Positions 26,518 to 54,458 of a stretch of 64,000 nt of DNA are shown here, in pieces. Under the pieces are notes generated by a model that worked only from the letters and a program-made list of their open reading frames with translations, searched no databases and was not told the DNA's origin. The stretch's first letter is position 1; each line of letters begins with the position of its first letter. Source of the DNA: Bacteroidota bacterium (GTDB lineage: Bacteria > Bacteroidota > Bacteroidia > Bacteroidales > CG2-30-32-10). Location: assembly GCA_013377115.1 (NCBI GenBank), contig JACAAW010000001.1, forward strand, positions 17,063 to 81,062. The letters run 5' to 3'. Position numbers and translations under genes: made by a program.

Positions 26518-26556
26518 ATCATTTCATTAATAAAAAAATAGCTTAATCAAATTTGA

Positions 26557-29352: not shown

Positions 29353-29359
29353 GCAAGAA

Positions 29360-32952: not shown

Positions 32953-35058
32953 TTAAACTTGCCAAGTTTTTGTGTAAGTAGAACCAATAACTCCCTTTTT
33001 GCAAAGTTTTGTCGTCATAAATTCTCCTGAGTGTTTAGCTTGGATTGAAATTGCATCCGATAAAGTTGCATTACAAGAATTTTTAATACAATCTAAAAGT
33101 GCTTTTCTTGCTTGGCTTAGAATTTCATCTTCATTATTTTCTAATCCTGCTATTTCATTTGGAATATCAGAAATTGGATTTTCATTAACTGCTCTTTTTG
33201 CAATTCCATGATCCCCACCTGAAGCAATTTTCAAAGCCATTTTGATTGAGTCTTCAGTAGAACCAGCATAATCAATAAGCCAACCAACAGCATCTTTTGC
33301 TTTTACAGATTTTCCTGATAAAATCAACTTTAGTAAATTTTGATAATTTCCAGCTTGCATTTTTCTAAATGGCCAGTGACAGCCTTCCATTCCTGGTATT
33401 ACTGGCAAAGTAACTTCTGGCATGCCCAAAGCTGCATTTTCTTCTGCAACTAAATAATGACAATGAACCATTAATTCAAGGAATCCACCCAAACAGCGTT
33501 TTCCATTGATAAATCCAACAGAATTTTTAAAGTCGGTATGTAAACGTCGTGCAGTTGCTGACCATGCTTTGCTCAATTCAATTCCCTTATTTGCATCTTC
33601 AATTGCAGGGAAAAAATCTGTTGTATCAGCACCAACCATTTGTGTTGAAATATGGAAATCACCAGTGATAATTACGTTTTCGATTCCAGCTGATTTCAAA
33701 TAATCAATGGCTCTGTTTAATTCAGCATTTACATCATGATTATAGCTTTCGCGATTAATAGAAATTACACCAACTTTTCCGTCATGCTCGGCATTTACAT
33801 AAAGTTGTTGCCATTCTGGACTACCAATTTTATCAAATTCTTTTGGATACCAAGCATTTTTAGCCGCTTCTGGCTGAAGTTTATGATAATCGCTTACAAT
33901 TTTGCGAGCGGCATCAGCACCATAATGTCGAATAAGTGCAAGTACGCCTTTTCTAAATTGAGCACATAATTCACCAATTAAATTCATTTGTGAAAGATGC
34001 GAGCGATTTTCATGAAGCATCAAGCTGGTCATTTGGAACAATGGACCGAGAATCCATGCATCAAATTCTGCAGTTTCTTCTTCGTTCATCGACCAGTCAA
34101 CCATTGGTCTGAAATGATCAAGTGGATACCAGTTTGAACCGCTTTCTTTCTTTTCGTTCATGTTGTCACTTGGTGTAAAAAGTTCGCCATAATGTTGACC
34201 TAAATGATGCAAACACGACCAAGTTAGGAAGTTTGCTCCAGCAGCACCAATTGCATCATGCGCTCTGAAAGGATTTGGACCAAAATATTTACGAATATAT
34301 TTATCTATTTTCCAATAAGGCATATTGGTAGTTTCGTTGAATCTAGCAGCTGCACCTGTGAGTCCGCAGAAGAAAACATCAAGAACAAAGGCCCAATTAT
34401 CGCTAACTTGCATTGGAATTAATCCCAAAGCCCATAATAGTTTTGAACTTGAAGAAGGCGTTGATTCAACAATTTCCCAAATTTTATTTACTTCGTGAGG
34501 AAAAGCGGGGTGTGCAATTCCAACTCCTAGTTGTGAACTTGGAAATCCAGAAGTAACAGACCAAATATCGATATCAGGAAAACTTTCTCTGAATGCTTTA
34601 TAATGATCCTTTTTTATTTCGAGAATTTCGGGAATTGCTTCAAGTAAAAATTTAGGATTGTGAGAAGCCAAAGCTTTTGGTAATGTTTTTCCGTCGTATG
34701 AATATTTAATAATATTTCCCATTACTTTATTGGCATTTCCTTTTCCGAATGCTTTAACAAGTCCGGGATATTGTTTTGCAATACCATCTGGTACACCTGG
34801 AAAATCCAGTGCAATAATTGGAATATCGAAAGGTTCCAGTCTTGAACCCAACTGCATTGTTTTTCCTGCGCCAACAATTCCATTGGCTCCTGTAATTACA
34901 AGAGCTCCTCTATTACCTGCTTTTCCAAAAACTTGGTCAACAAGTTCACCTGCTGTAACAGGTAATTTTCCATTTTGAAATATTTCTATAATTGAACCTA
35001 ACCCCAGCGTCTGAAGTGTAGATGATCTCATTTGATTTATCATATATTTTTCCTCCAT
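32953..35058 (-). CDS. fused 3-hydroxyacyl-CoA dehydrogenase (N-terminal) / enoyl-CoA hydratase-fold (C-terminal) protein
   Basis: 701 aa. N-terminal Rossmann-like ITGANGIVGAGKT followed by a HAD-type helical domain. The C-terminal ~260 aa have a crotonase fold (GVISINRESYNHDV.., GKRCLGGFLELMVHCHY). Domain order is the reverse of FadB. Confidence 0.6.
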   Translation of the reverse strand: MEEKYMINQMRSSTLQTLGLGSIIEIFQNGKLPVTAGELVDQVFGKAGNRGALVITGANGIVGAGKTMQLGSRLEPFDIPIIALDFPGVPDGIAKQYPGLVKAFGKGNANKVMGNIIKYSYDGKTLPKALASHNPKFLLEAIPEILEIKKDHYKAFRESFPDIDIWSVTSGFPSSQLGVGIAHPAFPHEVNKIWEIVESTPSSSSKLLWALGLIPMQVSDNWAFVLDVFFCGLTGAAARFNETTNMPYWKIDKYIRKYFGPNPFRAHDAIGAAGANFLTWSCLHHLGQHYGELFTPSDNMNEKKESGSNWYPLDHFRPMVDWSMNEEETAEFDAWILGPLFQMTSLMLHENRSHLSQMNLIGELCAQFRKGVLALIRHYGADAARKIVSDYHKLQPEAAKNAWYPKEFDKIGSPEWQQLYVNAEHDGKVGVISINRESYNHDVNAELNRAIDYLKSAGIENVIITGDFHISTQMVGADTTDFFPAIEDANKGIELSKAWSATARRLHTDFKNSVGFINGKRCLGGFLELMVHCHYLVAEENAALGMPEVTLPVIPGMEGCHWPFRKMQAGNYQNLLKLILSGKSVKAKDAVGWLIDYAGSTEDSIKMALKIASGGDHGIAKRAVNENPISDIPNEIAGLENNEDEILSQARKALLDCIKNSCNATLSDAISIQAKHSGEFMTTKLCKKGVIGSTYTKTWQV

Positions 35059-35064
35059 CGTTAG

Positions 35065-36261
35065 TTAAGAAACTCTAAAAATACCTGCAGTGCCAACGTC
35101 TCCAGCTGCACAACCAAATATCAATACAAATCCACCACCTAAATCAACAGCTTCTTCGAGAGCTTCGATAAGGGTTCTTGTAAGCGTTGGTGCTTGTGGA
35201 TGTCCCCAAACAAGAGAACATCCAGTATTGTTCATTTTTGCCCAATCGTAATTCATTGTTTTAGCAAAAATAGCATCATTCACTGCAAAAGGATTGTGGT
35301 TCTTAACAACCGCCATATCATTCAATGTTAATCCAGTGCGATCAAGAAGTTTTTTAACTGCCATTCCCGGAGCTTCTGGCATCAAACCAGGTCCAGTACG
35401 AATATCAACTTTTGCGATAAATTCGATATTAATTTCTGGTCGAGTACTTAGTTCTTTCGCTTTTTCAATAGAAGAAACAAGTAGAGTTGCCATTCCATCT
35501 GCAGCATGAGTTTGAGTTCCTGAAGTAATACAAGTATCCAATTCTCTTTGTTCTCTGAGTGTTTGAAGTGAAATTTCGCGAACGCCAACATCTTCGCTAA
35601 TTGTTCCTAAAAGTCGGCCTTGTACATTCAATACATCAAATGAAAACAAGCATTTATCTAAGAAGCCAGATTTTTTTGTATCAAAATATTGTTTATAACG
35701 TAAGTAGGTAAGTTCATCAACTTCTGCTCTGTCAATTTTGTATTTACGAGCAGTCATACCGGCAGTTGAAAGCATTGAACTACCTGTAGAAGGATCAAAA
35801 CCGAAATTATCCCAAACATCGGCAATTACTTCTGTTCTTCTGTAAGAGCGACGTTCTGGAAAAACTCCAACTGGCGAATCACTTGTTCTATCAAAGGTTA
35901 AAACTCCGGCAACATCATAGGATTTTGAATTCACTTCTGATCCGGCAACTATCACAGCACTAAGTCCTGTGGCACAAGCTTGTTCCATTTGGAAACCAGG
36001 GATTCTTTGTCCCATGCAACTTGCCACAGCAGGTCCATTCCAAAATTTCCAATGCCATGGAACAGTAGATCCGATAACAAGATATTCAAGTTCTTTCCGA
36101 CGAACTTTTCGTTTTCCTAATATATTTGCCATTGCCTCTCCAGCAAACTGGCCAATATTCACCTCAGCTAAAGGTGATGTTTGCCATCCTGGGAAATAAC
36201 TACTTCCCCAAGTTCCGTATGGAATCCTAGCAAATGGAAACATTGATTCAACTAATTTCAT
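35065..36261 (-). CDS. divergent thiolase-family protein
   Basis: 398 aa. Nucleophile context MEQACATGL, C-terminal GHPQAP and FGCAAGD. The sequence is far from canonical thiolase II. Confidence 0.65.
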   Translation of the reverse strand: MKLVESMFPFARIPYGTWGSSYFPGWQTSPLAEVNIGQFAGEAMANILGKRKVRRKELEYLVIGSTVPWHWKFWNGPAVASCMGQRIPGFQMEQACATGLSAVIVAGSEVNSKSYDVAGVLTFDRTSDSPVGVFPERRSYRRTEVIADVWDNFGFDPSTGSSMLSTAGMTARKYKIDRAEVDELTYLRYKQYFDTKKSGFLDKCLFSFDVLNVQGRLLGTISEDVGVREISLQTLREQRELDTCITSGTQTHAADGMATLLVSSIEKAKELSTRPEINIEFIAKVDIRTGPGLMPEAPGMAVKKLLDRTGLTLNDMAVVKNHNPFAVNDAIFAKTMNYDWAKMNNTGCSLVWGHPQAPTLTRTLIEALEEAVDLGGGFVLIFGCAAGDVGTAGIFRVS

Positions 36262-36295
36262 TTTTACGCCTCCTTTATGTTTTCTTTTTTTTTCT

Positions 36296-37042
36296 TTATT
36301 TCGTATTTAACAAAACACAACCATATGCCGCCAAAAACTGTGACTTTTCAGGACTTTCTGTGTTTTTAAACTTATCTTTAAACAATTTCAATATCATTGG
36401 ATGGTTATCAGGAATTCCACCAGTTACGACCAAAAAGTCTTCAACCAATGCCAATTCGAAACTTCTTTCAATGATTGAATTATAAATTCCCAAAACGATA
36501 CTTGGCATATTGGATCCATTTTTTATCATCCCAATAATTTCCGAAACAGCGAAAACAGTGCAAAAACTATTAATTCGAATTTCTTCAGTTGCTTTCTCGG
36601 CAAATTCATTGAATTCTAATGCTGAAATATCTAAGCGAAAAGCTATTTCTTCCAAAAATGAACCAGTACCAGCAGCACATTTTCGATTCATTTTAAATTT
36701 ATCAACTTGACCTTCTGCGTTAATTTTCACAAACTTTGTATCCTGACCGCCAATATCAATTACGGAACATGGCTTTTTGTAAATATCAAAAACAGCTTTG
36801 GACAATGCAATTATCTCAGAATTGGAAACCAAAGGAACCGTAAGCTTTTCGCGGCCATAGCCACAGGTAAAAATTGGATATTCGATTTCATGCTGGGCAG
36901 AAAAATGGTCAATTACTTTTTTTGAAGCTTTATCAAAGTCAAAACCAGTGCGGCCAACAAAATAATCGACAATAGCGTTATCTTCGTTAACGAGAACACC
37001 TTTGGTAAATGAAGATCCTAAATCAATTCCTATTCGGTACAT
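36296..37042 (-). CDS. BcrAD/BadFG/HgdC-family ATPase (electron-transfer activator)
   Basis: 248 aa. Actin-fold phosphate-1 motif IGIDLGSSFTKG, IDIGGQDTK, and cluster-bridging Cys contexts NRKCAAGTGSFLE and NSFCTVFAVSE. Confidence 0.85.
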   Translation of the reverse strand: MYRIGIDLGSSFTKGVLVNEDNAIVDYFVGRTGFDFDKASKKVIDHFSAQHEIEYPIFTCGYGREKLTVPLVSNSEIIALSKAVFDIYKKPCSVIDIGGQDTKFVKINAEGQVDKFKMNRKCAAGTGSFLEEIAFRLDISALEFNEFAEKATEEIRINSFCTVFAVSEIIGMIKNGSNMPSIVLGIYNSIIERSFELALVEDFLVVTGGIPDNHPMILKLFKDKFKNTESPEKSQFLAAYGCVLLNTK

Positions 37043-37092
37043 TATATATTTTTTACATTTAGATTTAAAAATAATGTAAATCTAAGAGAAAA

Positions 37093-38328
37093 TTATTTTC
37101 TATTTGCCAATTGTTGAATAAACGTTTCTATTGAAATAATGCTTTGCTCTTCGCTGTAGCACCTTGAATCATTCAAATCGCCATGAATTTCAATAAAAGG
37201 AACCTTGGTTTTTTCTAATAATCTATTTTGCAAACCGTATCTGTTGTTCGAGTTACGTGGACAAGTTTTGGATTCATGATAAATAATTCCGTCAATCGAA
37301 AATTCTGATAGAAGATTTGTCAAAACTTTTTCCTTTTCCTCGTCGGCTCTTACAATAAATAATTTGCAATAGGCCAATGCCGAAGATTCAAAAGGATCTG
37401 CTGGGTCTAAGGCATCAAAAATCCAGCTATTGCAATAGGTTGAAGCGACAATACAAGTGTCGAGACTTGCAAACATCTTAGCATTGCTGCTTAATTTGTA
37501 CCACAATGGCATTCCGTCCCAGTAAAGTCTTAGTTTTTCGTTTGGAACTGCACTAATTCCGTTCCTCACTCTTTCTTGAAGTTCTGCAAGTAAAATTTTA
37601 TAATAATCAACAGCATGCTGAGTTCCACGCATCACAACGATTGGTCCCATGTGAATCGCTGAATCAAAAAAGTTGATTGGTGATGGCTTATTTTTCGCTG
37701 TTTCTAAAACTTGACGCCAAAGCACGCAACCATCATGAGATAATTTTATCGTTTCTCTGAATTTGTCAATGTCGAATTTTTGCGTTGCAACCTTTTCCAA
37801 TTCAGGAATAATTTCTTTGAATTGTTCTGCAACAGATTTTATGATGCTTGGCGTGAGCTCGTTTATACAAAGTGGTGTATTGATCTCTAAAATAGGAACT
37901 TTAAAATACCTGGCGTAATATGAAAACCAATCTCCAACCTCGCGGCATTGATTGGTATTATAAACCAAAATATCTGGTGTTGGCACCGATTTGAATCCAC
38001 TTTTTTGAAGCGGTGTTTCGTTTTGCAAAAATGCACCAATATCGCTTGTTAAATACGAACAAATATCTGGTGAAAAACCATGAGCAACAGCTGTAGGAAT
38101 ATATTTATCAGCAGTTTTTGAAGCTCCCAACATGGCACCATGATTTTCAGGAAAATAAACTTCAAATCCCATGGAATAAAGCAATTCTGCCGGACCAACA
38201 CTTGTGCACCAGACAATTTTTTTATTCTTGGTTTCGTCAGCGGTTTTTAGTCGGTTAAAATAATCATCCATAGTAACACGGAGATTACCAACAGATTGAA
38301 GTTTTACTATTTCAGGTTTTTCTTGCAT
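37093..38328 (-). CDS. single-subunit member of the benzoyl-CoA reductase / 2-hydroxyacyl-CoA dehydratase family (double-cubane-cluster-protein-like)
   Basis: 411 aa. Family N-terminal signature IVWCTSVGPAELLYSMGFEVYFPENHGA and multiple conserved-looking Cys. Only one such subunit lies next to one activator gene. Confidence 0.7.
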   Translation of the reverse strand: MQEKPEIVKLQSVGNLRVTMDDYFNRLKTADETKNKKIVWCTSVGPAELLYSMGFEVYFPENHGAMLGASKTADKYIPTAVAHGFSPDICSYLTSDIGAFLQNETPLQKSGFKSVPTPDILVYNTNQCREVGDWFSYYARYFKVPILEINTPLCINELTPSIIKSVAEQFKEIIPELEKVATQKFDIDKFRETIKLSHDGCVLWRQVLETAKNKPSPINFFDSAIHMGPIVVMRGTQHAVDYYKILLAELQERVRNGISAVPNEKLRLYWDGMPLWYKLSSNAKMFASLDTCIVASTYCNSWIFDALDPADPFESSALAYCKLFIVRADEEKEKVLTNLLSEFSIDGIIYHESKTCPRNSNNRYGLQNRLLEKTKVPFIEIHGDLNDSRCYSEEQSIISIETFIQQLANRK

Positions 38329-38330
38329 CG

Positions 38331-39104
38331 TTATTTATTTTTCCAAACTGGTTTTCTTTTTTCTAAGAATGAATTAATCCCTTCGTTTGCATCTTCGGTT
38401 TCCATCAACTCTTTTACAAACATATCAGTAAAAGCAGGCAGATTTTTATTCATGAAATAATCGAAAGAAGCACGGGCAGCGCGAGTTGCATATTTTAATG
38501 ATACTGCACTTTTGGTACAAATATTACTTGTAATCCATTTTTCAGTTTCTGCTTCCAACATTTCTTTGTCTTCAAATACCTCATTGAGCAAACCAAGGTT
38601 TTTTGCTTCATCAGCAGAAATAATTTTCCCTGTAATTAAAAGTTCCTCAGCTTTTGCATTTCCAATTTTCAATGGCAACATAATTGAGGCTGGCGGAGCA
38701 AAAACGCCAAGAACAATTTCTGGTTGACCTAATTTTGCTGATTTATCTGCAAACATAAAATTACAAACCAATGCTAATTCGAGACCTCCACCCAAACACT
38801 GACCAGAAATTTTAGACATGGTTGGAATATGAAGTTCAACTATTGTTTGGAATATTTTATGAAAAGTAGTGAGCATTTTTAATGCATTTTCTTTGGTATG
38901 TTCTTCAACACTGGCTCCAAATGAAAAATGTTTTCCTGCTCCCTCAAAAGTAATGAGTTTTAAATCGTTTCTGGTTTTGTACGAAACTAAAAGTTCAATC
39001 AGTTCATTCATCATGATATCATCAATAACATTGCCCTTACCGTCATCGAGAACAATTCTTGCGACGGTGTTTTCGTATAAATATTCTACTTTTATTTTTT
39101 GCAT
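38331..39104 (-). CDS. dch: enoyl-CoA hydratase-fold protein; candidate cyclohexa-1,5-diene-1-carbonyl-CoA hydratase
   Basis: 257 aa crotonase (GAGKHFSFGASVEEH, CLGGGLELALVC) in the same operon as the had and oah homologues. Substrate is inferred from context only. Confidence 0.55.
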   Translation of the reverse strand: MQKIKVEYLYENTVARIVLDDGKGNVIDDIMMNELIELLVSYKTRNDLKLITFEGAGKHFSFGASVEEHTKENALKMLTTFHKIFQTIVELHIPTMSKISGQCLGGGLELALVCNFMFADKSAKLGQPEIVLGVFAPPASIMLPLKIGNAKAEELLITGKIISADEAKNLGLLNEVFEDKEMLEAETEKWITSNICTKSAVSLKYATRAARASFDYFMNKNLPAFTDMFVKELMETEDANEGINSFLEKRKPVWKNK

Positions 39105-39110
39105 TGTATT

Positions 39111-39140
39111 AAAATGTTTGTTGTTCTTTGTTTTATGTTT
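39111..39140. repeat. left inverted repeat flanking the four-helix-bundle gene
   Basis: aaaatgtttgttgttctttgttttatgttt. Its reverse complement matches 39599-39634 (a 15-nt exact block aacataaaacaaaga plus a 7-nt block caaacat). Confidence 0.75.
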
Positions 39141-39549
39141 ATTGTTCTATATTGGTCGTTTTATGAAACTTTGTACCTTTATACTGAGAATTTTTCAGAT
39201 AAGTAATTAACCCTCCAGATTTTGAAATTATTTCTTCACAAATTTGAGAATTGATTTTAAATTCCTCTTCCGAAATATATTTCCAATCAATGGCTCTGTA
39301 TAATTGTGATCGACATTCATTGCATGAACCAAGTGCTATACTCAAAAAATTAACAAATTCTTTGTTTCCCCCTCTTCCATAGCCTTCAGCAATATTATCC
39401 ATAATTGAACCACTTGAAGATTTTATTTGGTCTCTAAATCTGAAATCTTTTTGAAAAGAACCCTTTTCTGTTATCTCAAAAATATTAACACACAATTTTC
39501 TTGCAAGTTGCCATATTTCTAAATCTTCAAATCTTTTAAAAGTCGCCAT
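39139..39549 (-). CDS. four-helix-bundle protein (23S rRNA intervening-sequence protein family)
   Basis: 136 aa. FEDLEIWQLARKL.., RFRDQIKSSSGSIMDNIAEGYGR, ALGSCNECRSQL are typical of the PF05635-type family. Confidence 0.8.
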   Translation of the reverse strand: MATFKRFEDLEIWQLARKLCVNIFEITEKGSFQKDFRFRDQIKSSSGSIMDNIAEGYGRGGNKEFVNFLSIALGSCNECRSQLYRAIDWKYISEEEFKINSQICEEIISKSGGLITYLKNSQYKGTKFHKTTNIEQ

Positions 39550-39598
39550 TTCAAATTGATAAGTTCAATGTTGATTATCAGTAATTTAATATGGTTTT

Positions 39599-39634
39599 AA
39601 CATAAAACAAAGATCCTCAAACATAAAACATTTT
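39599..39634. repeat. right inverted repeat flanking the four-helix-bundle gene
   Basis: aacataaaacaaagatcctcaaacataaaacatttt, partner of 39111-39140. Confidence 0.75.
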
Positions 39635-39639
39635 TTAGT

Positions 39640-40722
39640 TTATTGAAATTGTGGCGAAATCGTTTTTATCAATTCATCATTCCACTCATGACCTTCAGCA
39701 AGCATTTGGCGTAATTTTACAAAATCAGCTTCTCTATTGTCTTTTGGACCATCATTGAATGCTCTGAAACCAGCTTTTCCTTCTGTCATCATGTTTAAAG
39801 CTAACCAATCTCTGTGGCTTTCTTTGTTCATATCCCAGAAAGCAAGTTTATGCATTCTAAGAGCATTAATGGTTTTGCTTAAACAATTTGGCATTGTATA
39901 AAGTAATTTTGTACAACATTTTTCAACGGCTTCGTCTAATGCTGTCAAATCAACAACACCAGATTTCATGATTTCTTTTCCTTTTGCTAAATCATCACCA
40001 GATTTTGATCTGCCATAAACAATTTGACCTCTATCGTCAACCCATTTATCAACAACAACCATTGGGTTTGCTATATATTCGCCATTAACTTTTAAAGCAG
40101 GAACTACTTCAGTTAGTAAACCTAAACGTAAAGCTTCATGAGCCGACCATGGATCGCAAACTGTGCAAGAATACATTGCATTTTCAATACCAACTAAAAG
40201 AGGTAAGAAATCTGTTGAACCACCAATTGGTGCACTTCCATGTTTAGGACCAGCTTGACCAAAACGGGCTAAATCCTGAGAAATAGAGAAATCGCAAGCC
40301 ATTCCAATTTCTTGTCCACCACCAATTCTCATTCCATTAACTCTGCAGATAACAGGTTTGTCATTCATTAAAATTGAAGAAACCATGTCATTAAACAAAC
40401 GCATGTATTGTTTGTATTCTTGAGGATTTCCAGCATAATATTCTGCGTATTCTTTAGTGTTTCCACCTGTACAGAATGCTTTATCTCCAACTCCAGTGAA
40501 AACAACAGCAACCACGCTTCTATCATTAGAAGATTCGCGCATTGCAAGAATTACTTCTTTAACTGCATCAGTTGTGTAAGAATTGTATTGACTTGGATTG
40601 TTTAGAATAATCCAGGCATTGAATAAACCTTTTATTGCATTTCCATGTTTATCTTTACAAGGGCGCAATTCATAAATAATGTTTTGGTATTCGTGCTTTA
40701 CTAAATTGTGACTTGATAACAT
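39640..40722 (-). CDS. oah: 6-oxocyclohex-1-ene-1-carbonyl-CoA hydrolase (ring-cleaving; Oah/BamA)
   Basis: 360 aa, an enlarged crotonase. It contains QYNSYTT and GGGQEIGMACDF about 90 aa apart. These are the peptides encoded by the bamA marker primers SP9/ASP1 as I recall them. Confidence 0.85.
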   Translation of the reverse strand: MLSSHNLVKHEYQNIIYELRPCKDKHGNAIKGLFNAWIILNNPSQYNSYTTDAVKEVILAMRESSNDRSVVAVVFTGVGDKAFCTGGNTKEYAEYYAGNPQEYKQYMRLFNDMVSSILMNDKPVICRVNGMRIGGGQEIGMACDFSISQDLARFGQAGPKHGSAPIGGSTDFLPLLVGIENAMYSCTVCDPWSAHEALRLGLLTEVVPALKVNGEYIANPMVVVDKWVDDRGQIVYGRSKSGDDLAKGKEIMKSGVVDLTALDEAVEKCCTKLLYTMPNCLSKTINALRMHKLAFWDMNKESHRDWLALNMMTEGKAGFRAFNDGPKDNREADFVKLRQMLAEGHEWNDELIKTISPQFQ

Positions 40723-40748
40723 AATTCTATATTTTTTAATTATTAATA

Positions 40749-41810
40749 TTATTGATTGTCGGGGACCAAAATAGACCTTTTTTTGTATTTATGTTCCAAT
40801 GTATTTTTGAATACTTCATTGATTTTCGACATTGGGAAAAGTTCAACAAAATCATTGATTTTCAATTTATCTGTCGCAATTAAATCAATTACTTCTGTAT
40901 ATAATTCAGGTTTGCAACCCCAGGTGCCAATTACTTTTGCATCGAAAGCCATTAAATTACTCAAGCGAACTTCTGGTTTATCCATGGTAAATCCAACAAT
41001 TGATAAAGTTGAAGTAAAGGTAATCAAATTGAATCCCAATTCTTGTCCGGCTTTTGTACCAGACATTTCGAAAATTTTCCAACCAAAGCGAGAAACGCCC
41101 AAGATTTTAACAATCTCTTTTACATTTTCTTTCACGGTTCTAATATCCATACCTTTAATATTGAGAGTGGCATCAATTCCGTTTGCTTTTGCGGTTGCTA
41201 ATTTTTCATTATCAATATCCAAAGCCAAAACTTTGGCACCCATAATTTTTGCGATTAATGCAGCATAAACGCCAACACCGCCAACACCAATAACAATTGC
41301 TAAATCGCCTACCTCCAATTCAGATTTTTTCAATACTTGATAAGGAGTTGAAATTGCATCAGCAACAACAGCTAATTTTTCCAAAGGGTATTTTTCTAAA
41401 ACGGCTTCAGGAACTGGACATAAAAATTTCGCAGGAACTTTGATATGAGAAGCAAAACCTCCATCAAAATCATTTCCTGGCATTAGTTGTTTTTGGCACA
41501 TATTGCTGCGTCCCTTTTTACAAAGTTCACATTCGCCACAAGGAAGAACAGCAGGAATAATCACATTTTTTCCAATCCACTCACTTGGTCCAGCTATGAC
41601 TTTTCCACTAATTTCATGACCAAGAGTTAAAGGCAATTCTTTTTTTGTTTTTACACCAAAATGCCAAAAGCTCAAATCTGTATGGCAAACGCCACAACCA
41701 GAAATTTTTATTAAAGCTTCATCTTGATTGAGTTCTGGTAAAGGACTTTCTACAAGTTGAAAATCAGCTTTTAGCTCCGTCATTTTCCAAGAATACATTT
41801 TTCCTTCCAT
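40749..41810 (-). CDS. had: Zn-dependent alcohol dehydrogenase; candidate 6-hydroxycyclohex-1-ene-1-carbonyl-CoA dehydrogenase
   Basis: 353 aa. Catalytic Zn ligands (GCGVCHTD, GHEISG), structural Zn site CGECELCKKGRSNMC, Rossmann motif GVGGVGV. Immediately upstream of oah. Confidence 0.7.
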   Translation of the reverse strand: MEGKMYSWKMTELKADFQLVESPLPELNQDEALIKISGCGVCHTDLSFWHFGVKTKKELPLTLGHEISGKVIAGPSEWIGKNVIIPAVLPCGECELCKKGRSNMCQKQLMPGNDFDGGFASHIKVPAKFLCPVPEAVLEKYPLEKLAVVADAISTPYQVLKKSELEVGDLAIVIGVGGVGVYAALIAKIMGAKVLALDIDNEKLATAKANGIDATLNIKGMDIRTVKENVKEIVKILGVSRFGWKIFEMSGTKAGQELGFNLITFTSTLSIVGFTMDKPEVRLSNLMAFDAKVIGTWGCKPELYTEVIDLIATDKLKINDFVELFPMSKINEVFKNTLEHKYKKRSILVPDNQ

Positions 41811-41830
41811 ATGATAATGTTATTTGTTTT

Positions 41831-42799
41831 TTAAATATTTTCTCCGTCTTTGGATGTTCTATTTTTGTAGGTTATTGACCTTACTAAATTTGTAAACGTT
41901 AAATTTAATGGTGTTTTAATGTAATGTTTACGACCATATTCAACAATTTTTCCATTCATAAAATCAATTTCTGTCTCTTTTTTGTTAATTAAATCGACTG
42001 CTAATGAAGGCATGTGATTTCCGGCATTTTTCAAATAACGAATGCACAATTTAACAAAATTCTCAGGTAATTTTATTTCCTCTGCTTTTGCAACTTCAAC
42101 AGCTTCATAAATAATTTGTTCTACAATTTCTAAAGTATCTGGATGATCCATTGCTTCTTTCATGGTAAGATTGGAAATCGCACATAATGGACTTAAAGCC
42201 GCATTTAAAATTGTTTTTTCCCAAATTTTGTTAACGACTTCAAAAGAGCCAACTTTTTCGGTAATTAAACCAACGCTTGTTAATAATTCGGCTATTTTTT
42301 CAGCTATTTCAGGATGAGAATCATCAACAGAGGCAACATAGTTTGGTGGATTGAAAAAACTAACTGCTGTAACATTAGGAGCATGAAGATTTCCAGCATA
42401 GTTGACAACCATTCTCAACACTTTTGATTCTTCAAAATGTGTAATGTATTTTTTTCTAACTCCAATTCCATTTTGGGCAATCAATAAAAAAACATCTTTT
42501 TTATCACAAAGTTTTACTTGTTCGATAATACTATCAACATTATAATCTTTTACAGCGCTAATTAAAACATCAAAATCATGTTCCAGCAATTCTTGAATTG
42601 AGCTATAAACATGTTTAAAATAAGCTTGCTTTTCAATTTTATCAACCAATTCAATTCCTGAATTTCTAATTAAAGCAAGTTTGTTTTTATCAATGTCAGT
42701 AATAGCAACTTCACATCCAGCTTCTTTTAAATGAACTGCTAATGCTTGCCCAACAGGACCAAGACCAATAATTCCGAATCGAAATACTTTTTCTCCCAT
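41831..42799 (-). CDS. ketopantoate-reductase (ApbA/PanE) family NAD(P)-dependent oxidoreductase
   Basis: 322 aa. N-terminal GIIGLGPVG Rossmann fold and C-terminal PanE-type helical domain (KIWEKTILNAALSPL.., SLAVDL..KETEIDFMNG). Confidence 0.7.
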   Translation of the reverse strand: MGEKVFRFGIIGLGPVGQALAVHLKEAGCEVAITDIDKNKLALIRNSGIELVDKIEKQAYFKHVYSSIQELLEHDFDVLISAVKDYNVDSIIEQVKLCDKKDVFLLIAQNGIGVRKKYITHFEESKVLRMVVNYAGNLHAPNVTAVSFFNPPNYVASVDDSHPEIAEKIAELLTSVGLITEKVGSFEVVNKIWEKTILNAALSPLCAISNLTMKEAMDHPDTLEIVEQIIYEAVEVAKAEEIKLPENFVKLCIRYLKNAGNHMPSLAVDLINKKETEIDFMNGKIVEYGRKHYIKTPLNLTFTNLVRSITYKNRTSKDGENI

Positions 42800-42841
42800 A
42801 ATTTTATTCTTCTTTCTATAAAATAAAAATCCTTTAATAAA

Positions 42842-44929
42842 TTACATAATAATACGAGCATCTACTGCACAAACCCTATTCTCATTTGCAAAAATGGGGT
42901 TTAAATCCAACTCTTTGATTTCTGGAAAATCATTCACCAAAGTGGAAATTCTTTGTAAAATCTCTGATACTTTTCCTTTATCAATTCCTTTTTTCCCTCT
43001 AAAATCATTCAATAATGCGGCCGATTTAATATTTTCGAGCATTTCATTTGCCTCAACATCAGTGGTTGGAGCAATTTTGAACACCACATCTTTGTATACC
43101 TCAACCATAACACCACCCATTCCGAACATAATTAAATGGCCTAATCCTTCTTCCTCCTTAACTCCGATAATTAATTCTCGGCTTTCAGGAAGAAATTCCT
43201 GAATGAAGAATTTTAAATCTGGTTGCTGAAGTTTGTTTTGCATATTTTGCACTACAGTTCTGACTTCCTCAGCGTTTTTAATATTTATTGCAACTCCACC
43301 CACATCACTTTTGTGAATGATTTTTTCCGAATCCGCTTTTATTACCAAAGGAAATCCAATTTTCTCGGCTTCAATAACAGCTTCATCAACAGTTTTTGCA
43401 ATACTCCATTTTGCTATTGGAATTTTGTAAGCCTCTAAAATTTCATAAACATCTTTGGCTGTTAAAACTTCTTTTCCTTGGGCTTTTACTGAATCGAAAA
43501 CGGCTTTAGCTTTGCCTTTATTGATATCTGTAAAAGTTTTTATTGAACCTTTTTTCCTCGATCTGATTTCATTGTATTTTGAAAGTGACGAAAGGGCTTT
43601 TGCAGCAGTTTCAGGGTAATCAAAACATGGAATTCCTCCATCAGCAAGAATTTTAGAAGTTTCACCCCAGTTTTGTTTATCCGTGATATAATTACAAACA
43701 ATTGGTTTTATTTGTTTTTTGCTTATTTCAGCAATTTCTTTAGCGACACTCACACAATCAACAAAAGGAGGAGTTACAAAAGTGAGATAAATCCCGTCAA
43801 TTTGCTCTTCATTCATCATCACTTCTATGGCGCTTTTAAAATGTGCAGCACCAGCAGTCGCCACAACATCCAAAGGATTGTTTATTGACGCTTGTTCCAA
43901 CATGGTTAGTTTTAATTCTGCTTTGGCTTTTTCCGAAATTGGAGGCATTGCCATACCACAAGAAACCAGTTCGTCGGTTGCAATAATAGCAGGACCACCA
44001 GTATTGGTAATCATTCCAACGTTGCTTCCATTTGGTATTGGTTGCGAAGAAAAAGCAATGGCAGCATGACAAATTTCCTCTAAATTAGAGAATGAAAGAA
44101 TTCCTGCTTTTTGAAATATCAGCTCCATTGTTACTCCACCAGCCAAACCACCAGTATGGGATTTGGAAGCCGCAGCACCTTTTTCGGTTCTACCAGCAGA
44201 AATGGCTAAAATTGGTTTTTTAGCAGCAACTTCCATCGCTACTTCCATGAATTCTTTTGTATTTGAAAGGCTTTCGAGATAAAGAATAATTACTTTGGTT
44301 CCTTCATCTTCGCCATAATATTTTAAAATTTCGGATATGGAAACATCAGAGCCATTGCCATTAGAAGAATAAAGCCTCAATCCAATTTCCATATCATGCA
44401 ATACTTGCATAATTAATGCCCCAACACCGCCACTTTGCGCAACAATAGAAATAGAACCTGGTTTGTAAAATGTAAATGTAAAATTGCAATAAGCATTGTA
44501 TTTTGGGTCGGAATTGATGGTACCTTGGCAGTTTGGACCAATAATTCTGATACCGTATTTTTTTGCGCGGGCTAAAAAATCATCTTCAAGAGCCTGACCT
44601 TCTGCCCCCATTTCTTTGAAACCAGCAGTATTGATAATAATAGCTTTTACTCCTTTTTTTCCGCAATTTTCAACCTCTTCTGGAACAAACGGTGGAGGTA
44701 TAACGATGTGAGCTAATTCGACTTCGCCAGGAACATCCATAATTGATGGATAAGCTTTTATTCCCCGAATCTCGTCAACCTTTGGGTTTATTGGATAAAT
44801 TGGCCCTGTAAAACCATAATGAACTAAGTTTTTGATGATGATATTTCCAATAGAAAGCTCTTTTACTGATGCACCAATTAACGCAATTGATTTGGGTTCG
44901 TAGAAATAATTCAAGTTATCTTTATTCAT
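42842..44929 (-). CDS. ADP-forming acyl-CoA synthetase (fused alpha-beta), first gene of the ring-processing operon
   Basis: 695 aa. CoA-binding N-domain (IALIGAS), phosphohistidine loop SKSHTGGLAG, C-terminal ATP-grasp domain. Paralogue of the gene at 13714-15771. Confidence 0.8.
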   Translation of the reverse strand: MNKDNLNYFYEPKSIALIGASVKELSIGNIIIKNLVHYGFTGPIYPINPKVDEIRGIKAYPSIMDVPGEVELAHIVIPPPFVPEEVENCGKKGVKAIIINTAGFKEMGAEGQALEDDFLARAKKYGIRIIGPNCQGTINSDPKYNAYCNFTFTFYKPGSISIVAQSGGVGALIMQVLHDMEIGLRLYSSNGNGSDVSISEILKYYGEDEGTKVIILYLESLSNTKEFMEVAMEVAAKKPILAISAGRTEKGAAASKSHTGGLAGGVTMELIFQKAGILSFSNLEEICHAAIAFSSQPIPNGSNVGMITNTGGPAIIATDELVSCGMAMPPISEKAKAELKLTMLEQASINNPLDVVATAGAAHFKSAIEVMMNEEQIDGIYLTFVTPPFVDCVSVAKEIAEISKKQIKPIVCNYITDKQNWGETSKILADGGIPCFDYPETAAKALSSLSKYNEIRSRKKGSIKTFTDINKGKAKAVFDSVKAQGKEVLTAKDVYEILEAYKIPIAKWSIAKTVDEAVIEAEKIGFPLVIKADSEKIIHKSDVGGVAINIKNAEEVRTVVQNMQNKLQQPDLKFFIQEFLPESRELIIGVKEEEGLGHLIMFGMGGVMVEVYKDVVFKIAPTTDVEANEMLENIKSAALLNDFRGKKGIDKGKVSEILQRISTLVNDFPEIKELDLNPIFANENRVCAVDARIIM

Positions 44930-45034
44930 AAACTATAAAAATTCAGGTGAAAAGCAGGATGTTAGATTTGAAGTTTTTAGGAGAATCAAAATACTTAACG
45001 AGTCCAAATTTAAATCTTTCTTAAAGTTATTTTA

Positions 45035-45213
45035 TTAAAATCAAATATAGTAATCTTTATTGATTATGTCAAATTTTAAAAAAACCATAACAAATAAGGA
45101 TTCTTTATATCGCAAAGATAAAAATAAATCGACAAAAAACAAATATGGTTTGAAAAAACAAACGAATTCGCCTTTTTTCCTATTGCTTTAGTAGGAAATT
45201 AACTATTTTTAAC
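45035..45213 (-). promoter_or_regulatory. promoter/regulatory region, copy X of a duplicated ~180-bp block
   Basis: On the minus strand: TTTG (45070-45073), N20, TATATTTG (45042-45049), matching the Bacteroidota -33/-7 consensus, about 113 nt upstream of the ATG at 44929. A 43-nt block identical to copy Y lies further upstream (tctttatatcgcaaagataaaaataaatcgacaaaaaacaaat), as does the palindrome TTCCTA-N9-TAGGAA (45177-45197). Confidence 0.7.
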
Positions 45214-45444
45214 ATTTTATTAATATTTAACGCAAATCAAAATAAAAACGTTAGATATTTAATCCTTTAATTCAAAACGAAATATTTTATCTTTCGAGGT
45301 AATTCCTCTTCACAAATACACTGATTTCATTAATGAAATAACGGCAAGTACTTTCTAAATTATTATCAAATAATTCCGGTGGTATTGATTATTTTTAGGC
45401 GGTTGAAAAAGTGGTATTTTGAGAAATATTGATACAAATTCTAC

Positions 45445-46272
45445 CTATTTTTTCAACTTCTTATTTTTCTTCGCTTCGGGTAAAAAATTGTTTTCAGAAA
45501 TTACTTTTTCACCTGTTTTTAATTCCAATGCTTTTCTAGCATCACCTGCTATTTTACCGCCTTGTTTGGCAACCACTTTATTTTGGACAAAACCTTTTGG
45601 GTTTTTAGTTTTTACAATAGCTGTTGTTGATGCTTCTCCGAGCATTGAGAAAATTAATTCCAAATCGGTCATGTGGTCACGCAGGTTTTGGCTTTTCAAA
45701 CCTTTTACTTTCTTGTATTGAGAAGGTGTTAAACCAAATGTTGCTTTAGAAATTTCTGCAGTTAAAATAGAATATTCAATTTGTTCTTTTACGCCTCTAT
45801 TTTTCCATTCCTCAGTTAATTCTTCACGAATAGCAATGCTACGCATTCGTTTTTCAATCCAATCGTCAGGATAGCCTTTGGCTTTATACAATTCTCTGGT
45901 TCGTTGAGTTGCTAATTCCGGATTTTCAATTTCGTCTAATCTGTCTGAACCAACTTGTGCCAACCATTGCTTAAATGGTTCTGCTTTGGGTGATGGAATT
46001 GATTGAATGATTCTCAAAAGACCTTTAGCGTTTGCAGCCTGTACTTTACGTCTTTTACCATCAGCTGCCTGCATTTCAACTAGGGTACAAATTGTACCCC
46101 AGTTGCTTTTTAGTTGTTCATCACGACTTAAAATTCTTTTTATGTATTGCTTAACATCCGCACTATCGGTGAGGACTTCTACAACATCTTGCACTGAGAA
46201 ATACCATTTGTTCTCTGTTTCGTTCCAAACAGACCGTATTTGCTTACTTTCAAAAAGTTTTATATTGCTCAT
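45445..46272 (-). CDS. Bro-N domain / DinD-like (DNA-damage-inducible protein D family) protein
   Basis: About 275 aa from the ATG at 46272 (MSNIKLFESKQIRSVWNETENKWYFSVQDVVEVLT is Bro-N-like). The C-terminal region ..NLRDHMTDLELIFSMLGEASTT.. resembles DinD. Confidence 0.65.
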   Translation of the reverse strand: MSNIKLFESKQIRSVWNETENKWYFSVQDVVEVLTDSADVKQYIKRILSRDEQLKSNWGTICTLVEMQAADGKRRKVQAANAKGLLRIIQSIPSPKAEPFKQWLAQVGSDRLDEIENPELATQRTRELYKAKGYPDDWIEKRMRSIAIREELTEEWKNRGVKEQIEYSILTAEISKATFGLTPSQYKKVKGLKSQNLRDHMTDLELIFSMLGEASTTAIVKTKNPKGFVQNKVVAKQGGKIAGDARKALELKTGEKVISENNFLPEAKKNKKLKK

Positions 46273-46544
46273 TAATTTGTTTTTTCTGGAACTCAAAAAT
46301 ACTTAAAAGTGCGTACTTTAAAAAATGATTTTGAAAATTTGGAGGGTTGAGTTATCAACAATTATTTATTACAGTAGACAATTTACAACAAATATTCTAA
46401 GGAAAATCTATCAGGAAATACAAAAATTATTCCGCAATCACCCAATCACCATTTTTGATGAGAATATTGTTAGGATTGAAATCCCAGTTCATGTTACTTA
46501 ATAATTAAGAAAATTCTAAATAATTACAATTTCAATAATTGGTA

Positions 46545-47369
46545 TTATTTTTTATTCAATTTATGGTATCTAAATCCACCAAATATTGCAGCTCCAATTG
46601 CTCCAGAATAAATTGCATCGGGATGTGTCGAAAAAGTTAAACCTAATTTTGCTTCTGTTCCAAGTTCTTCAATTGCCTGAACCATACCTTTATTCATTGC
46701 CATTCCACCCATTAATGCAACTTTTGAATCGGCTTTTAATGAAGAAAGCAATTTTATTACTTTACTTGCTATGGATAAATGAATTCCTTTAATAATATCT
46801 GGAGTTGAAATCCCTCTAGAAACCATGTTAATCACATCCGTTTCTGCAAGTACTGAGCAAATACCTGAAGGCAATTCAGGTGACATTGATTTTAGTGATG
46901 CATCGCCAACTTCTTCTATTGCTAATCCTAAATATCTTGAAATGTTTTCAACAAATTGTCCCGAACCAGAAGCACATTGGCCTGTCATTTTATAATCCAA
47001 TACTCGGCCTTCATCACTAATGTTTATTGCTCTTACGAAAAGAGCTCCAAGATCCAAAACTGTTTTTGAACCAGGATTAAGAAATAGCCCACCTTTTGCA
47101 TGAGTAGTCATGCTATAAAAATGACCTTTCTTTCTTTTTAGAAGTTCTCCTTCTCCAGTTGAAGCCACATAAGCAATATCCTCGTATTTCAAATTGTTTT
47201 TTAAAAGTATTGCATCTAATAAAAGATCCGAAATACTTTCGGGATTCCTTTTTCTTATTTTCTCGTTTACCTTGTCAATAATAATTGGATTATCAGAATA
47301 CTCCATTAAAACCAGTTTAATTGTACTGCTTCCAACGTCAATTCCGAGGGTATAAACTTTATTATCCAT
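46545..47369 (-). CDS. bcrD: benzoyl-CoA reductase ATPase subunit, small (BcrD/BadG-like)
   Basis: 274 aa. LGIDVGSSTIK, cluster Cys contexts TGQCASGSGQF and SGICSVLAETD. Fourth gene of a C-B-A-D series. Confidence 0.75.
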   Translation of the reverse strand: MDNKVYTLGIDVGSSTIKLVLMEYSDNPIIIDKVNEKIRKRNPESISDLLLDAILLKNNLKYEDIAYVASTGEGELLKRKKGHFYSMTTHAKGGLFLNPGSKTVLDLGALFVRAINISDEGRVLDYKMTGQCASGSGQFVENISRYLGLAIEEVGDASLKSMSPELPSGICSVLAETDVINMVSRGISTPDIIKGIHLSIASKVIKLLSSLKADSKVALMGGMAMNKGMVQAIEELGTEAKLGLTFSTHPDAIYSGAIGAAIFGGFRYHKLNKK

Positions 47370-47401
47370 ATAGACTTATTTCTTTATTTAATTTTTACTG
47401 A

Positions 47402-48784: not shown

Positions 48785-48817
48785 TGATATCTGTTATTTC
48801 TAAATTTTGTAAAATTT

Positions 48818-50089: not shown

Positions 50090-50166
50090 ATTTTAAGTAA
50101 AATTAATAGTTAAAAAAACGAGTATTTTTGCAGTATAAATTCAAATATGAAATCTACTAAAATACA

Positions 50167-51330: not shown

Positions 51331-51357
51331 ATTGTAATTGTTTTTAATGAAGTTTTT

Positions 51358-51538
51358 TATAAAATCAAATATAGCAATCTAAATCAGTTATGTCAAATTT
51401 TAGAAATATTATAACAAATAACTAATCTTTATATCGCAAAGATAAAAATAAATCGACAAAAAACAAATCACAATTAAAAAAGGCGCCGTAAGTGCTGTTT
51501 TTCCTATCGCTTTAATAGGAAATTTAACTATTTTTAAC
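51358..51538 (-). promoter_or_regulatory. promoter/regulatory region, copy Y of the duplicated block (upstream of bcrC)
   Basis: On the minus strand: TTTG (51394-51397), N20, TATATTTG (51366-51373), 36 nt upstream of the TTG start. It carries the same 43-nt block as copy X and the palindrome TTCCTAT-N7-ATAGGAA (51501-51521). Confidence 0.7.
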
Positions 51539-51547
51539 TTTTCACTT

Positions 51548-52339: not shown

Positions 52340-52344
52340 TGTTT

Positions 52345-53289: not shown

Positions 53290-53302
53290 CGTTTATTTTT
53301 TA

Positions 53303-53340
53303 AGCGAGACAACAAAAGTTTTAAAAACTTTTGTTATCTT
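53303..53340. repeat. REP-like imperfect palindrome H1
   Basis: agcgagacaacaaaagttttaaaaacttttgttatctt. Stem acaaaag/cttttgt extended by gaga/tatc. Located between the RAYT stop and the start of the preceding gene. Confidence 0.75.
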
Positions 53341-53343
53341 AAG

Positions 53344-53919: not shown

Positions 53920-53933
53920 TTCGTTTATCTTTT

Positions 53934-53972: not shown

Positions 53973-54001
53973 TACTGCTTTTGTATTCTTCCAAATAATG
54001 A

Positions 54002-54373: not shown

Positions 54374-54458
54374 TCAAAAAAATATTGTTACTTACAAATT
54401 CTTGTAAAGATAGAAATTAGATAACTTCGTTTTATTTTATAAAATAAAAAACTTCATA

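Follow-up and report, generated by a model that had tools for sequence, protein, structure and literature searches.

Do the genes at 38331–41810 of the window (the whole 64,000-nucleotide stretch of DNA analyzed here) encode a ring-processing trio, as the original prediction proposed from two short BamA marker peptides in one of them? We consider it highly probable that the region encodes the three "modified β-oxidation" enzymes acting on what benzoyl-CoA reductase produces. Judged by their sequences, they appear to be the ordinary Dch/Had/Oah set of anaerobic aromatic degradation, placed in a low-GC Bacteroidota genome.

Family assignment of the three enzymes

The central gene (39640–40722, minus strand) encodes a 360-aa enlarged crotonase whose assignment as the 6-oxocyclohex-1-ene-1-carbonyl-CoA hydratase Oah/BamA is supported along its full length. 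The two peptides that had been predicted to lie about 90 residues apart, QYNSYTT (aa 45–51) and GGGQEIGMACDF (aa 134–145, with GQEIGM at aa 136–141), start 89 residues apart. In a profile search, the protein scored 593.4 bits against the NCBIfam equivalog TIGR03200 (trusted cutoff 464.45; E 1.4e-178), with residues 3–354 covering profile positions 2–358 of 360. The alignment to this family runs through the entire protein; the occurrence of the two bamA motifs is not due to chance. Identity to Oah from a cultured organism, Magnetospirillum fulvum, is 66.6%, rising to 86.6% across the 97-aa region of the survey amplicon, and orthologs occur in many Bacteroidota and Ignavibacteria metagenome-assembled genomes (MAGs). 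Oah itself is not new, and its novelty had been overrated: a 100% identical GenBank MAG protein, NVO01115.1, is already named 6-oxocyclohex-1-ene-1-carbonyl-CoA hydratase.

Directly upstream lies a 353-aa protein with the Zn-dependent alcohol dehydrogenase fold (40749–41810, minus strand), supported as a member of the 6-hydroxycyclohex-1-ene-1-carbonyl-CoA dehydrogenase (Had) family. It passes the cutoff of TIGR03201 (451 bits against 338.65), and its nearest solved structures are the Had entries 7quy and 7qul (359 and 358 bits), followed at a distance by the alcohol dehydrogenase 6iqd (133 bits). Identity to 7quy is approximately 50% over the full length. The putative metal and dinucleotide sites comprise GCGVCHTD (C39/C42), GHE (64–66), the structural-Zn lobe C91/C94/C97/C105, and the glycine motif GVGGVG, all of which align to their 7quy counterparts. 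The earlier description of a Had-like dehydrogenase with both Zn sites is thus borne out.

The third member, a 257-aa crotonase (38331–39104, minus strand), is probably the cyclohexa-1,5-diene-1-carbonyl-CoA hydratase Dch. Its translation contains GGGLE and QPE, which we take to hold the crotonase catalytic Glu pair by analogy with E144 and E164 of rat enoyl-CoA hydratase. "Dch-like" is a fair label for this protein. It had been predicted to follow oah, and here the size and the likeness to Dch in clade and synteny hold up; the two genes are not directly adjacent. Between them is a 136-aa four-helix-bundle ORF of the 23S rRNA intervening protein (IVP) family (39139–39549, minus strand; PF05635 118 bits, TIGR02436 107 bits). 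Among the 80 oah loci compared, an ORF of this kind at this position is confined to the window and L001.

Two of these assignments can be read differently. The 360-aa protein could be a BadI, a MenB, or a generic crotonase that shares just two short motifs with BamA, and its crotonase domain (aa 36–217) does align with MenB structures at approximately 100 bits. The chance of this is close to nil. The BadI model TIGR03210 gives 125.1 bits against a cutoff of 467.6 and covers residues 36–215 only, so membership in the BadI family is rejected, and MenB and generic crotonase models reach at most 119 bits, compared with 593 bits for the full-length Oah match. The protein also has the 360-aa length and C-terminal extension specific to Oah, and its had and dch neighbors are conserved. 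In a neighbor-joining tree that had no BadI sequence among those included, it sits within a single compact Oah clade, with a long branch between this clade and the generic crotonases, the window's own among them. The branching with BadI or generic crotonases that had been named beforehand as counting against an Oah identity was therefore not seen in the model scores or in the tree. Together with synteny, these results refute the BadI, MenB, and generic readings. For the 257-aa protein, the concern is that it may serve the lower (pimelyl/glutaryl-CoA) pathway as an ordinary enoyl-CoA hydratase, with another protein hydrating the dienoyl-CoA. Its 212 bits against TIGR03189 fall short of the 292.5 cutoff, the generic hydratase model PRK07658 gives 157 bits, and the solved structures nearest to it are those of generic hydratases. 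Yet TIGR03189 is its best family match and, for most of the homologs checked, the sole match at E <1e-40. Those homologs, from Bacteroidota, Ignavibacteria, and related phyla, all score below the cutoff as well (223–239 bits); Dch proteins that pass it include those of L071 (437 bits) and L077 (341 bits), and Magnetospirillum Dch scores 437 bits. The candidate clades with the bona fide Dch of L071 and L077, apart from the ech256-type hydratases of the same loci, and a homolog is present at 73 of 80 loci, usually immediately after oah. The lower pathway is moreover already covered by a short-chain hydratase at 57141–57911 (PRK05809, 318 bits). We find the ordinary-hydratase interpretation improbable and retain Dch as the probable identity.

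Genomic context and the proposed pathway

Approximately 5 kb upstream of the trio is a probable class I, Thauera-type benzoyl-CoA reductase (46545–51330, minus strand), encoded by bcrC (50167–51330), bcrB (48818–50089), bcrA (47402–48784), and bcrD (46545–47369), and the locus consequently appears to be a full class I benzoyl-CoA cluster. The gene order C-B-A-D is that of Thauera and Magnetospirillum. BcrB (632 bits; cutoff 486.55) and BcrC (456.5; 421.15) exceed their family cutoffs; BcrA (416; 578) and BcrD (306.5; 312.85) have these families as best matches below cutoff. The trio, bcrCBAD, and β-oxidation genes form one co-directional block in a genome of approximately 33% GC, with had adjoining oah and dch one ORF away. 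The cluster lacks a ferredoxin gene as well as an AMP-forming benzoate-CoA ligase. The order had-oah-dch is kept across Bacteroidota, Ignavibacteria, Marinimicrobia, Zixibacteria, Acidobacteria, and Proteobacteria, and a had homolog accompanies oah in 74 of the 80 loci. On the plus strand, the pathway context includes a glutaryl-CoA-dehydrogenase-like acyl-CoA dehydrogenase (25339–26517) and a 4-hydroxybenzoyl-CoA-reductase-like Mo enzyme with the gamma subunit fused to alpha (26557–29352) and a separate beta subunit (29360–30301). The best matches in the region 25339–30301 are all below cutoff: TIGR03194 with 816 bits (994.55), TIGR03195 with 207.6 (404.55), and NF045552 with 254 (470).

The substrates and reaction order are inferred from the characterized enzymes of Thauera, Geobacter, and Syntrophus. 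Dch would add water to cyclohexa-1,5-diene-1-carbonyl-CoA in a 1,4-hydration, giving 6-hydroxycyclohex-1-ene-1-carbonyl-CoA, which the NAD+-dependent Had would oxidize to 6-oxocyclohex-1-ene-1-carbonyl-CoA. By analogy, Oah/BamA would then hydrate the double bond and open the ring hydrolytically, releasing 3-hydroxypimelyl-CoA. The chemistry of this pathway has been summarized (PMC5742626), and the Thauera Dch works at approximately 100 U/mg (PMC5742626).

Even with these identities in place, the trio might act on other substrates or in the other direction. It could process a substituted dienoyl-CoA derived from a methyl-, hydroxy-, or halo-benzoyl-CoA, like the Mbd enzymes of Azoarcus CIB; the 4-hydroxybenzoyl-CoA-reductase-like enzyme, the extra radical-enzyme genes in the same island, and the scores of Dch, BcrA, and BcrD under their equivalog cutoffs would fit such a role. 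We give this little credence, given that Oah and Had pass equivalog cutoffs built on enzymes of the unsubstituted pathway, that the window holds a single trio and a single benzoyl-CoA reductase, and that a 4-hydroxybenzoyl-CoA reductase would itself yield unsubstituted benzoyl-CoA. As for direction, Syntrophus aciditrophicus makes cyclohexanecarboxylate and benzoate, and a pathway running mainly in this reverse, fermentative mode would have the trio closing rings in vivo. A low-GC member of the Bacteroidales is probably fermentative, and the cluster has ADP-forming acyl-CoA synthetases, which are typical of ATP-conserving fermenters. However, an ATP-hydrolyzing class I reductase is effectively irreversible, and the 4-hydroxybenzoyl-CoA-reductase-like enzyme and the β-oxidation genes point to catabolism, making a ring-closing role very improbable. 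Degradation of the unsubstituted benzoyl-CoA reductase product is the reading that we prefer.

Among known systems, the cluster of Thauera aromatica and Magnetospirillum (AJ224959, cited in PMC5742626) has the same families in the order had, oah, dch beside a Thauera-type bcrCBAD, and in M. fulvum oah lies in a had-oah-dch-bcrCBAD cluster. The window differs in its GC content, in the ORF that splits oah from dch, in the lack of fdx, and in a Dch that is only 38% identical and under the HMM cutoff. Its bcr genes are also upstream rather than downstream, with a Bro-N ORF, an ADP-forming acyl-CoA synthetase, and a ketopantoate reductase (KPR)-like gene between. In Geobacter metallireducens and Syntrophus aciditrophicus (BamA/BamQ/BamR), the highly conserved BamA serves as a functional marker; the window retains QYNSYTT and GQEIGM, its signature peptides, at the 292-bp spacing, a likeness drawn from the peptides and their distance. 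In these two obligate anaerobes, the reductase that goes with BamA is the ATP-independent class II enzyme BamB-I, whereas in the window it is probably an ATP-dependent class I enzyme. The BadK/BadH/BadI system of Rhodopseudomonas palustris likewise combines a hydratase, a dehydrogenase, and a ring hydrolase of the crotonase fold, but BadI is approximately 260 aa and cleaves 2-ketocyclohexanecarboxyl-CoA, and Oah matches its model in the crotonase core alone. Published uncultured members of the Bacteroidota superphylum carry bcrABCD and the genes from benzoyl-CoA to 3-hydroxypimelyl-CoA, as in the window. The papers on them report only which genes are present; the accessory module, the replacement of the ligase by a synthetase, and the mismatched primers described below do not feature in them.

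Match to the bamA survey primers

Standard bamA surveys rely on the primers SP9 and ASP1, whose sequences as published (PMC3794298, PMC3579730) agree with those given in the original prediction. The window DNA matches them poorly. At the SP9 site (40569–40590, minus strand; CAATACAATTCTTACACAACTG), which encodes QYNSYTT, 2 of 22 positions are mismatched (3 and 12) and the 3′ end is perfect. At the ASP1 annealing site, over the G-Q-E-I-G-M codons (40299–40316, plus strand), 4 of 18 are mismatched (primer positions 5, 8, 14, and 17); two of these are within five bases of the 3′ end, one of them (position 17) at the last base but one. The AT-rich codons noted earlier at the primer sites thus weigh on ASP1, and their effect is uneven, with SP9 little changed. 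The in silico amplicon is 292 bp, in line with the expected ~300 bp.

With an annealing step at 59 °C, the estimated duplex Tm on the window template is approximately 47 °C for SP9 and 30 °C for ASP1 (66 °C when perfectly matched), although these are rough nearest-neighbor values and a low-stringency PCR could still amplify. Over the 80 loci, lower GC goes with more primer mismatches (Spearman rho −0.71, p 1.6e-13), and all 23 loci under 40% GC have more than two SP9 and ASP1 mismatches in total. In silico, then, the mismatches, the Tm estimates, and the GC trend all support the proposal that standard bamA PCR probably misses this lineage, and we would expect SP9/ASP1 amplification to fail on the window template.

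The accessory module and the synthetase slot

The genes flanking the trio are, in our view, more interesting than the trio itself. Next to had is a conserved neighbor, a 322-aa dehydrogenase of the KPR family (41831–42799, minus strand; TIGR00745 166.8 bits). This gene is found in 49 of 80 loci and is fused to the HgdC-type activase in at least 26. Past dch, on the same strand, are a 411-aa HadB-like single HGD-D subunit (37093–38328; PF06050 204 bits) and a 248-aa HgdC-type activase (36296–37042; TIGR00241 167.5 bits), a module conserved in 57 of the 80 loci. The nearest PDB entry to the HadB-like subunit is the HadB alpha subunit 3o3m_A (178 bits); the benzoyl-CoA reductase subunits MbdO and BzdO score approximately 100. 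A 695-aa ADP-forming (NDP-forming) acyl-CoA synthetase (42842–44929, minus strand), with the Pfam domains CoA_binding_2, Succ_CoA_lig, and ATP-grasp_5, sits in the slot that an AMP-forming ligase occupies in 26 other loci. The ADP-forming type is found in 14 loci, and no locus has both. Also on the minus strand are the genes for a divergent thiolase-like protein (35065–36261) and for a 701-aa protein whose C-terminal part is a crotonase domain (32953–35058); the two are found together in L008, L010, L047, L049, L051, and L065.

One tentative idea, which we hold to be on the unlikely side, is that this module feeds the trio. The KPR-family enzyme would reduce an aryl-2-oxoacid supplied by amino-acid fermentation (phenylpyruvate or 4-hydroxyphenylpyruvate, for example), after which the synthetase or ligase would form the 2-hydroxyacyl-CoA, and the HadB-like enzyme would dehydrate it to cinnamoyl-CoA. 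β-Oxidation would then yield benzoyl-CoA or 4-hydroxybenzoyl-CoA for benzoyl-CoA reductase and Dch/Had/Oah. If such an aryl-2-oxoacid route operates, activation would be one ATP equivalent cheaper than usual. With their radical-enzyme module and, in the window's lineage, the ADP-forming synthetase in the ligase slot, benzoyl-CoA clusters of Bacteroidota and related phyla may go beyond the Thauera pathway rather than simply repeat it.

Identity of the ring-processing genes

The interval 38331–41810 holds four co-directional ORFs, all on the minus strand. The product of the 360-aa ORF (39640–40722, minus) was assigned to Oah/BamA in an NCBIfam search, where it scored 593.4 bits over the whole profile of the equivalog TIGR03200 (6-oxocyclohex-1-ene-1-carbonyl-CoA hydratase; cutoff 464.45 bits). 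The original prediction had placed both bamA marker peptides in this protein, and both were located in the translation, QYNSYTT at residues 45–51 and GGGQEIGMACDF at residues 134–145. An exact look-up of the protein among contigs gave no match; the protein collection holds an identical entry (100%), GenBank NVO01115.1, which resides on an 88.7-kb contig and is named [quoted passage not shown]. The PDB copy searched contained no solved structure of Oah. Among the best 120 Oah relatives listed, identity ranged from 76 to 93%.

Scanning GTDB species representatives yielded 80 related loci. Bacteroidota and Ignavibacteria make up the majority, and the others come from Marinimicrobia, Zixibacteria, Gemmatimonadota, Eisenbacteria, Acidobacteria, and a few Proteobacteria, including Magnetospirillum fulvum DSM 13234, which served as a proxy for the Thauera-type cluster. 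In a neighbor-joining tree, the Oah sequences of these loci form one tight clade, and a long branch sets it apart from the generic crotonases that the window itself encodes. The nearest sequence to the window Oah is that of a Bacteroidales locus, L001 (87%), within a Bacteroidota/Ignavibacteria subclade. BadI was compared through HMM scores: its model gave 125 bits and MenB at most 119 bits, with alignments confined to the crotonase core. These scores and the tree rule out a BadI, MenB, or generic crotonase identity, and the predicted membership in the Oah/BamA clade holds. The window Oah is 66.6% identical to that of M. fulvum overall and 86.6% over the 97-aa amplicon region. For about the same region, identities of 82% (Thauera versus Geobacter) and 70% (Geobacter versus Azoarcus BzdY) have been reported (PMC3794298); by this comparison, the window enzyme falls comfortably within the known protein-level diversity of BamA.

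The gene upstream had been described as a zinc-dependent alcohol dehydrogenase of the Had type with both Zn sites, a description that the searches bear out. The 353-aa product of had (40749–41810, minus) scored 451 bits against TIGR03201 (cutoff 338.65). Its best solved structures, 7quy and 7qul (359 bits), are 6-hydroxycyclohex-1-ene-1-carbonyl-CoA dehydrogenases; the next Zn-ADH reached 133 bits. The motifs GCGVCHTD and GHE and a four-Cys structural-zinc lobe (C91, C94, C97, C105) were found and aligned with the same motifs in 7quy.

The Dch-like partner is less clear-cut. The best match of the 257-aa crotonase (38331–39104, minus) is TIGR03189, cyclohexa-1,5-dienecarbonyl-CoA hydratase, but its 212 bits fall below the cutoff of 292.5. 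To weigh this score, genes at the dch position in nine related loci were scanned as well. Those of cultured M. fulvum and a Nostocoides MAG gave 437 and 341 bits, while those of Bacteroidota, Ignavibacteria, Marinimicrobia, Zixibacteria, and Acidobacteria gave 223–239 bits, with TIGR03189 as the best match and usually the sole one at E < 1e-40. L053 was the exception: its dch-like gene occupies another part of the locus, gives 146 bits with TIGR03189, and scores highest against generic enoyl-CoA hydratase models. In a neighbor-joining tree, the window protein and its homologs share a clade with cutoff-passing Dch proteins, and ech256-type short-chain enoyl-CoA hydratases of the same loci fall apart from it. 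The crotonase catalytic Glu pair (GGGLE, QPE) is present, and the PDB copy searched held no solved Dch structure. Given the best match, the shared clade, and the Glu pair, the protein is probably Dch, though it fails the curated threshold.

This crotonase does lie downstream of oah, but the original prediction overlooked a 136-aa ORF in between (39139–39549, minus), a member of the four-helix-bundle/23S rRNA intervening-sequence (IVP) family (PF05635, 118 bits; TIGR02436, 107 bits). In the other loci dch typically follows oah directly. Because this ORF occupies the position in just the window and its closest relative, L001, among the 80 loci, it probably entered the operon recently.

The surrounding cluster and catabolic island

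Homologs of had and dch accompany oah in 74 and 73 of the 80 loci, and the order had-oah-dch is kept. In the window, bcrC-B-A-D (46545–51330, minus) lies about 5 kb upstream of the trio, so that the region would make up a full class I benzoyl-CoA cluster of the Thauera type. BcrB (632 bits) and BcrC (456.5 bits) score above cutoff; BcrA (416 bits) and BcrD (306.5 bits) are best matches, yet below cutoff. The Thauera cluster carries fdx, whereas no ferredoxin-like small ORF was found near bcrCBAD within 44900–54600 of the window. An electron donor for the class I benzoyl-CoA reductase (BCR) is not apparent in the window.

A typical gene order, for example in locus L033, is bcrCBAD, CoA ligase, HadB-like HGD-D, ketopantoate-reductase (KPR)-family dehydrogenase, HgdC-type activase, thiolase, had, oah, dch, and FadB-like. 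The window encodes the HadB-like protein (37093–38328) and the activase at 36296–38328 (minus) and the KPR-family dehydrogenase at 41831–42799 (minus). This module adjoins had-oah-dch in most Bacteroidota, Ignavibacteria, and related loci (4557–7645 in L033), and in at least 26 of the 80 the KPR-like and activase parts are a single fused ORF (for example, L033:5771–7645). Because contigs of ten identical sizes recur in the Oah and HadB-like match lists, the two genes seem to share contigs. The HadB-like protein could be taken for a second BcrB; this was ruled out, as it is merely 28–29% identical to BcrB and lies nearer to dehydratase alpha subunits. Its nearest PDB entry is the 2-hydroxyisocaproyl-CoA dehydratase alpha subunit 3o3m_A (178 bits), and the BCR subunits MbdO and BzdO reach about 100 bits. 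No beta-subunit partner is visible. Pantoate-type and D-2-hydroxyacid-type members were not told apart when the KPR-like protein was searched against the PDB.

The ligase slot adjoins the HadB-like and KPR-like genes and follows bcrD in loci having bcrD. In the window it holds an ADP-forming (NDP-forming) acyl-CoA synthetase (42842–44929, minus; compare L033:2807–4555). Across the loci, the slot holds an AMP-forming ligase in 26 and an ADP-forming synthetase in 14, and since it never holds both, this suggests that the substrate-activating enzyme underwent non-orthologous displacement. An ADP-forming synthetase here could save one ATP equivalent. One conceivable, though improbable, role for these genes is a phenyllactate-type feeder route, in which an aryl-2-oxoacid would pass through the 2-hydroxyacid, its CoA ester, and cinnamoyl-CoA to benzoyl-CoA; if true, the window's lineage would spend one ATP equivalent less on activation. 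Elsewhere in the window, tryptophanase TnaA (NF053783, 890 bits) stands beside a second ADP-forming acyl-CoA synthetase of 697 aa (12309–15807, minus), which may point to fermentation of aromatic amino acids by this organism.

The island at 22–58 kb also encodes ETF, two acyl-CoA dehydrogenases (one glutaryl-CoA-dehydrogenase-like), thiolases, a 3-hydroxyacyl-CoA dehydrogenase, and a short-chain enoyl-CoA hydratase. A 4-hydroxybenzoyl-CoA-reductase-like Mo enzyme (26557–30301, plus; TIGR03194 and TIGR03195 best matches, below cutoffs), whose 2Fe-2S gamma part is fused to alpha (931 aa) and whose FAD beta subunit is encoded separately, is kept near oah in about 23 loci. Two ORFs at 32953–36261 (minus) encode, as a pair, a divergent thiolase-like protein of 398 aa and a protein of 701 aa. 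The latter has a weak crotonase domain in its C-terminal 280 aa, and its N-terminal part matched no family; the pair recurs in L008, L010, L047, L049, L051, and L065. A Bro-N-domain ORF between bcrD and the acyl-CoA synthetase (45445–46296, minus) and a REP-associated tyrosine-transposase-like ORF upstream of bcrC (53344–53919, minus) resemble insertions of mobile or phage origin in the catabolic island. The remaining window carries ordinary chromosomal genes (QueG, Tgt, FAD synthetase, class II aldolase, an ECF sigma factor, and a TonB-dependent receptor with a CarboxypepD_reg domain) at about 33% GC throughout. Promoter and terminator scans of 36000–46700 gave counts not above shuffled controls, and no Rfam families or tRNAs were found within the window.

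Predicted chemistry and its novelty

Following the chemistry of characterized enzymes as summarized in PMC5742626, BCR would reduce benzoyl-CoA to the cyclic 1,5-dienoyl-CoA, to which Dch would add water to give 6-hydroxycyclohex-1-ene-1-carbonyl-CoA. Had would oxidize this product with NAD+, and Oah would hydrate the enoyl group and hydrolyze the ring to 3-hydroxypimelyl-CoA, which could then pass to the beta-oxidation enzymes of the same island. Family membership, synteny, and intact reading frames were observed directly; we infer the substrates, reaction direction, and expression of the trio.

The trio is the textbook benzoyl-CoA lower pathway, from which biochemistry gains nothing new. Earlier papers already record benzoyl-CoA pathway genes for MAGs from this superphylum: the anaerobic benzoyl-CoA enzymes are expressed by a Flavobacteriales koll-22 MAG (PMC8099898), and Krumholzibacteriota have bcrABCD and the steps to 3-hydroxypimelyl-CoA (PMC10936416). 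The window oah is already correctly auto-annotated as Oah in GenBank. Given these reports and this annotation, the trio is one more uncharacterized member of a well-known kind.

The bamA survey primers at low GC

Surveys of anaerobic aromatic degradation use bamA amplified with SP9 and ASP1 as their standard marker. The original prediction had described these primers in agreement with the published sequences, and had proposed that standard bamA PCR would probably miss this lineage. The SP9 site (window 40590–40569, CAATACAATTCTTACACAACTG) carries 2 mismatches, both internal. The ASP1 target (40316–40299, gene sense GACAAGAAATTGGAATGG) carries 4 in 18; counted from the primer 3′ end, two of these fall at positions 2 and 5. 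The in-silico amplicon is 292 bp, close to the roughly 300 bp anticipated, and this spacing is invariant across the 80 loci. By rough nearest-neighbor estimates, the Tm on the window is about 47°C for SP9 and 30°C for ASP1, versus 60°C and 66°C for perfect matches; annealing in the published protocol is at 59°C. These values agree in direction with the 3′ mismatches.

Over the 80 loci, total primer mismatches climb steeply as locus GC declines (Spearman rho −0.71, p 1.6e-13). Every one of the 23 loci below 40% GC has more than two mismatches in total, and in 19 of them an ASP1 mismatch lies within the last five bases at the 3′ end. Because low-GC loci carry more mismatches, mostly including such 3′-end ones, there is in-silico support for the proposal that SP9/ASP1 surveys would probably miss the window's lineage, and it would extend to low-GC Bacteroidota and Ignavibacteria generally. 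As the amplicon region is 87% identical to the Magnetospirillum BamA protein, the blind spot would sit at the DNA level rather than reflect a divergent enzyme. Our literature search, which was poorly targeted to this question, found no published evaluation of SP9/ASP1 bias. An example of a more degenerate bamA primer pair is CARTWYAAYTCNTAYACNAC with CCATNCCDATYTCYTGNC.

The practical value of the finding is methodological. Because of this primer blind spot, PCR-based surveys may under-count low-GC Bacteroidota and Ignavibacteria degraders, which metagenomes will see. ATP-dependent class I BCR is widespread in uncultured Bacteroidota and related phyla.
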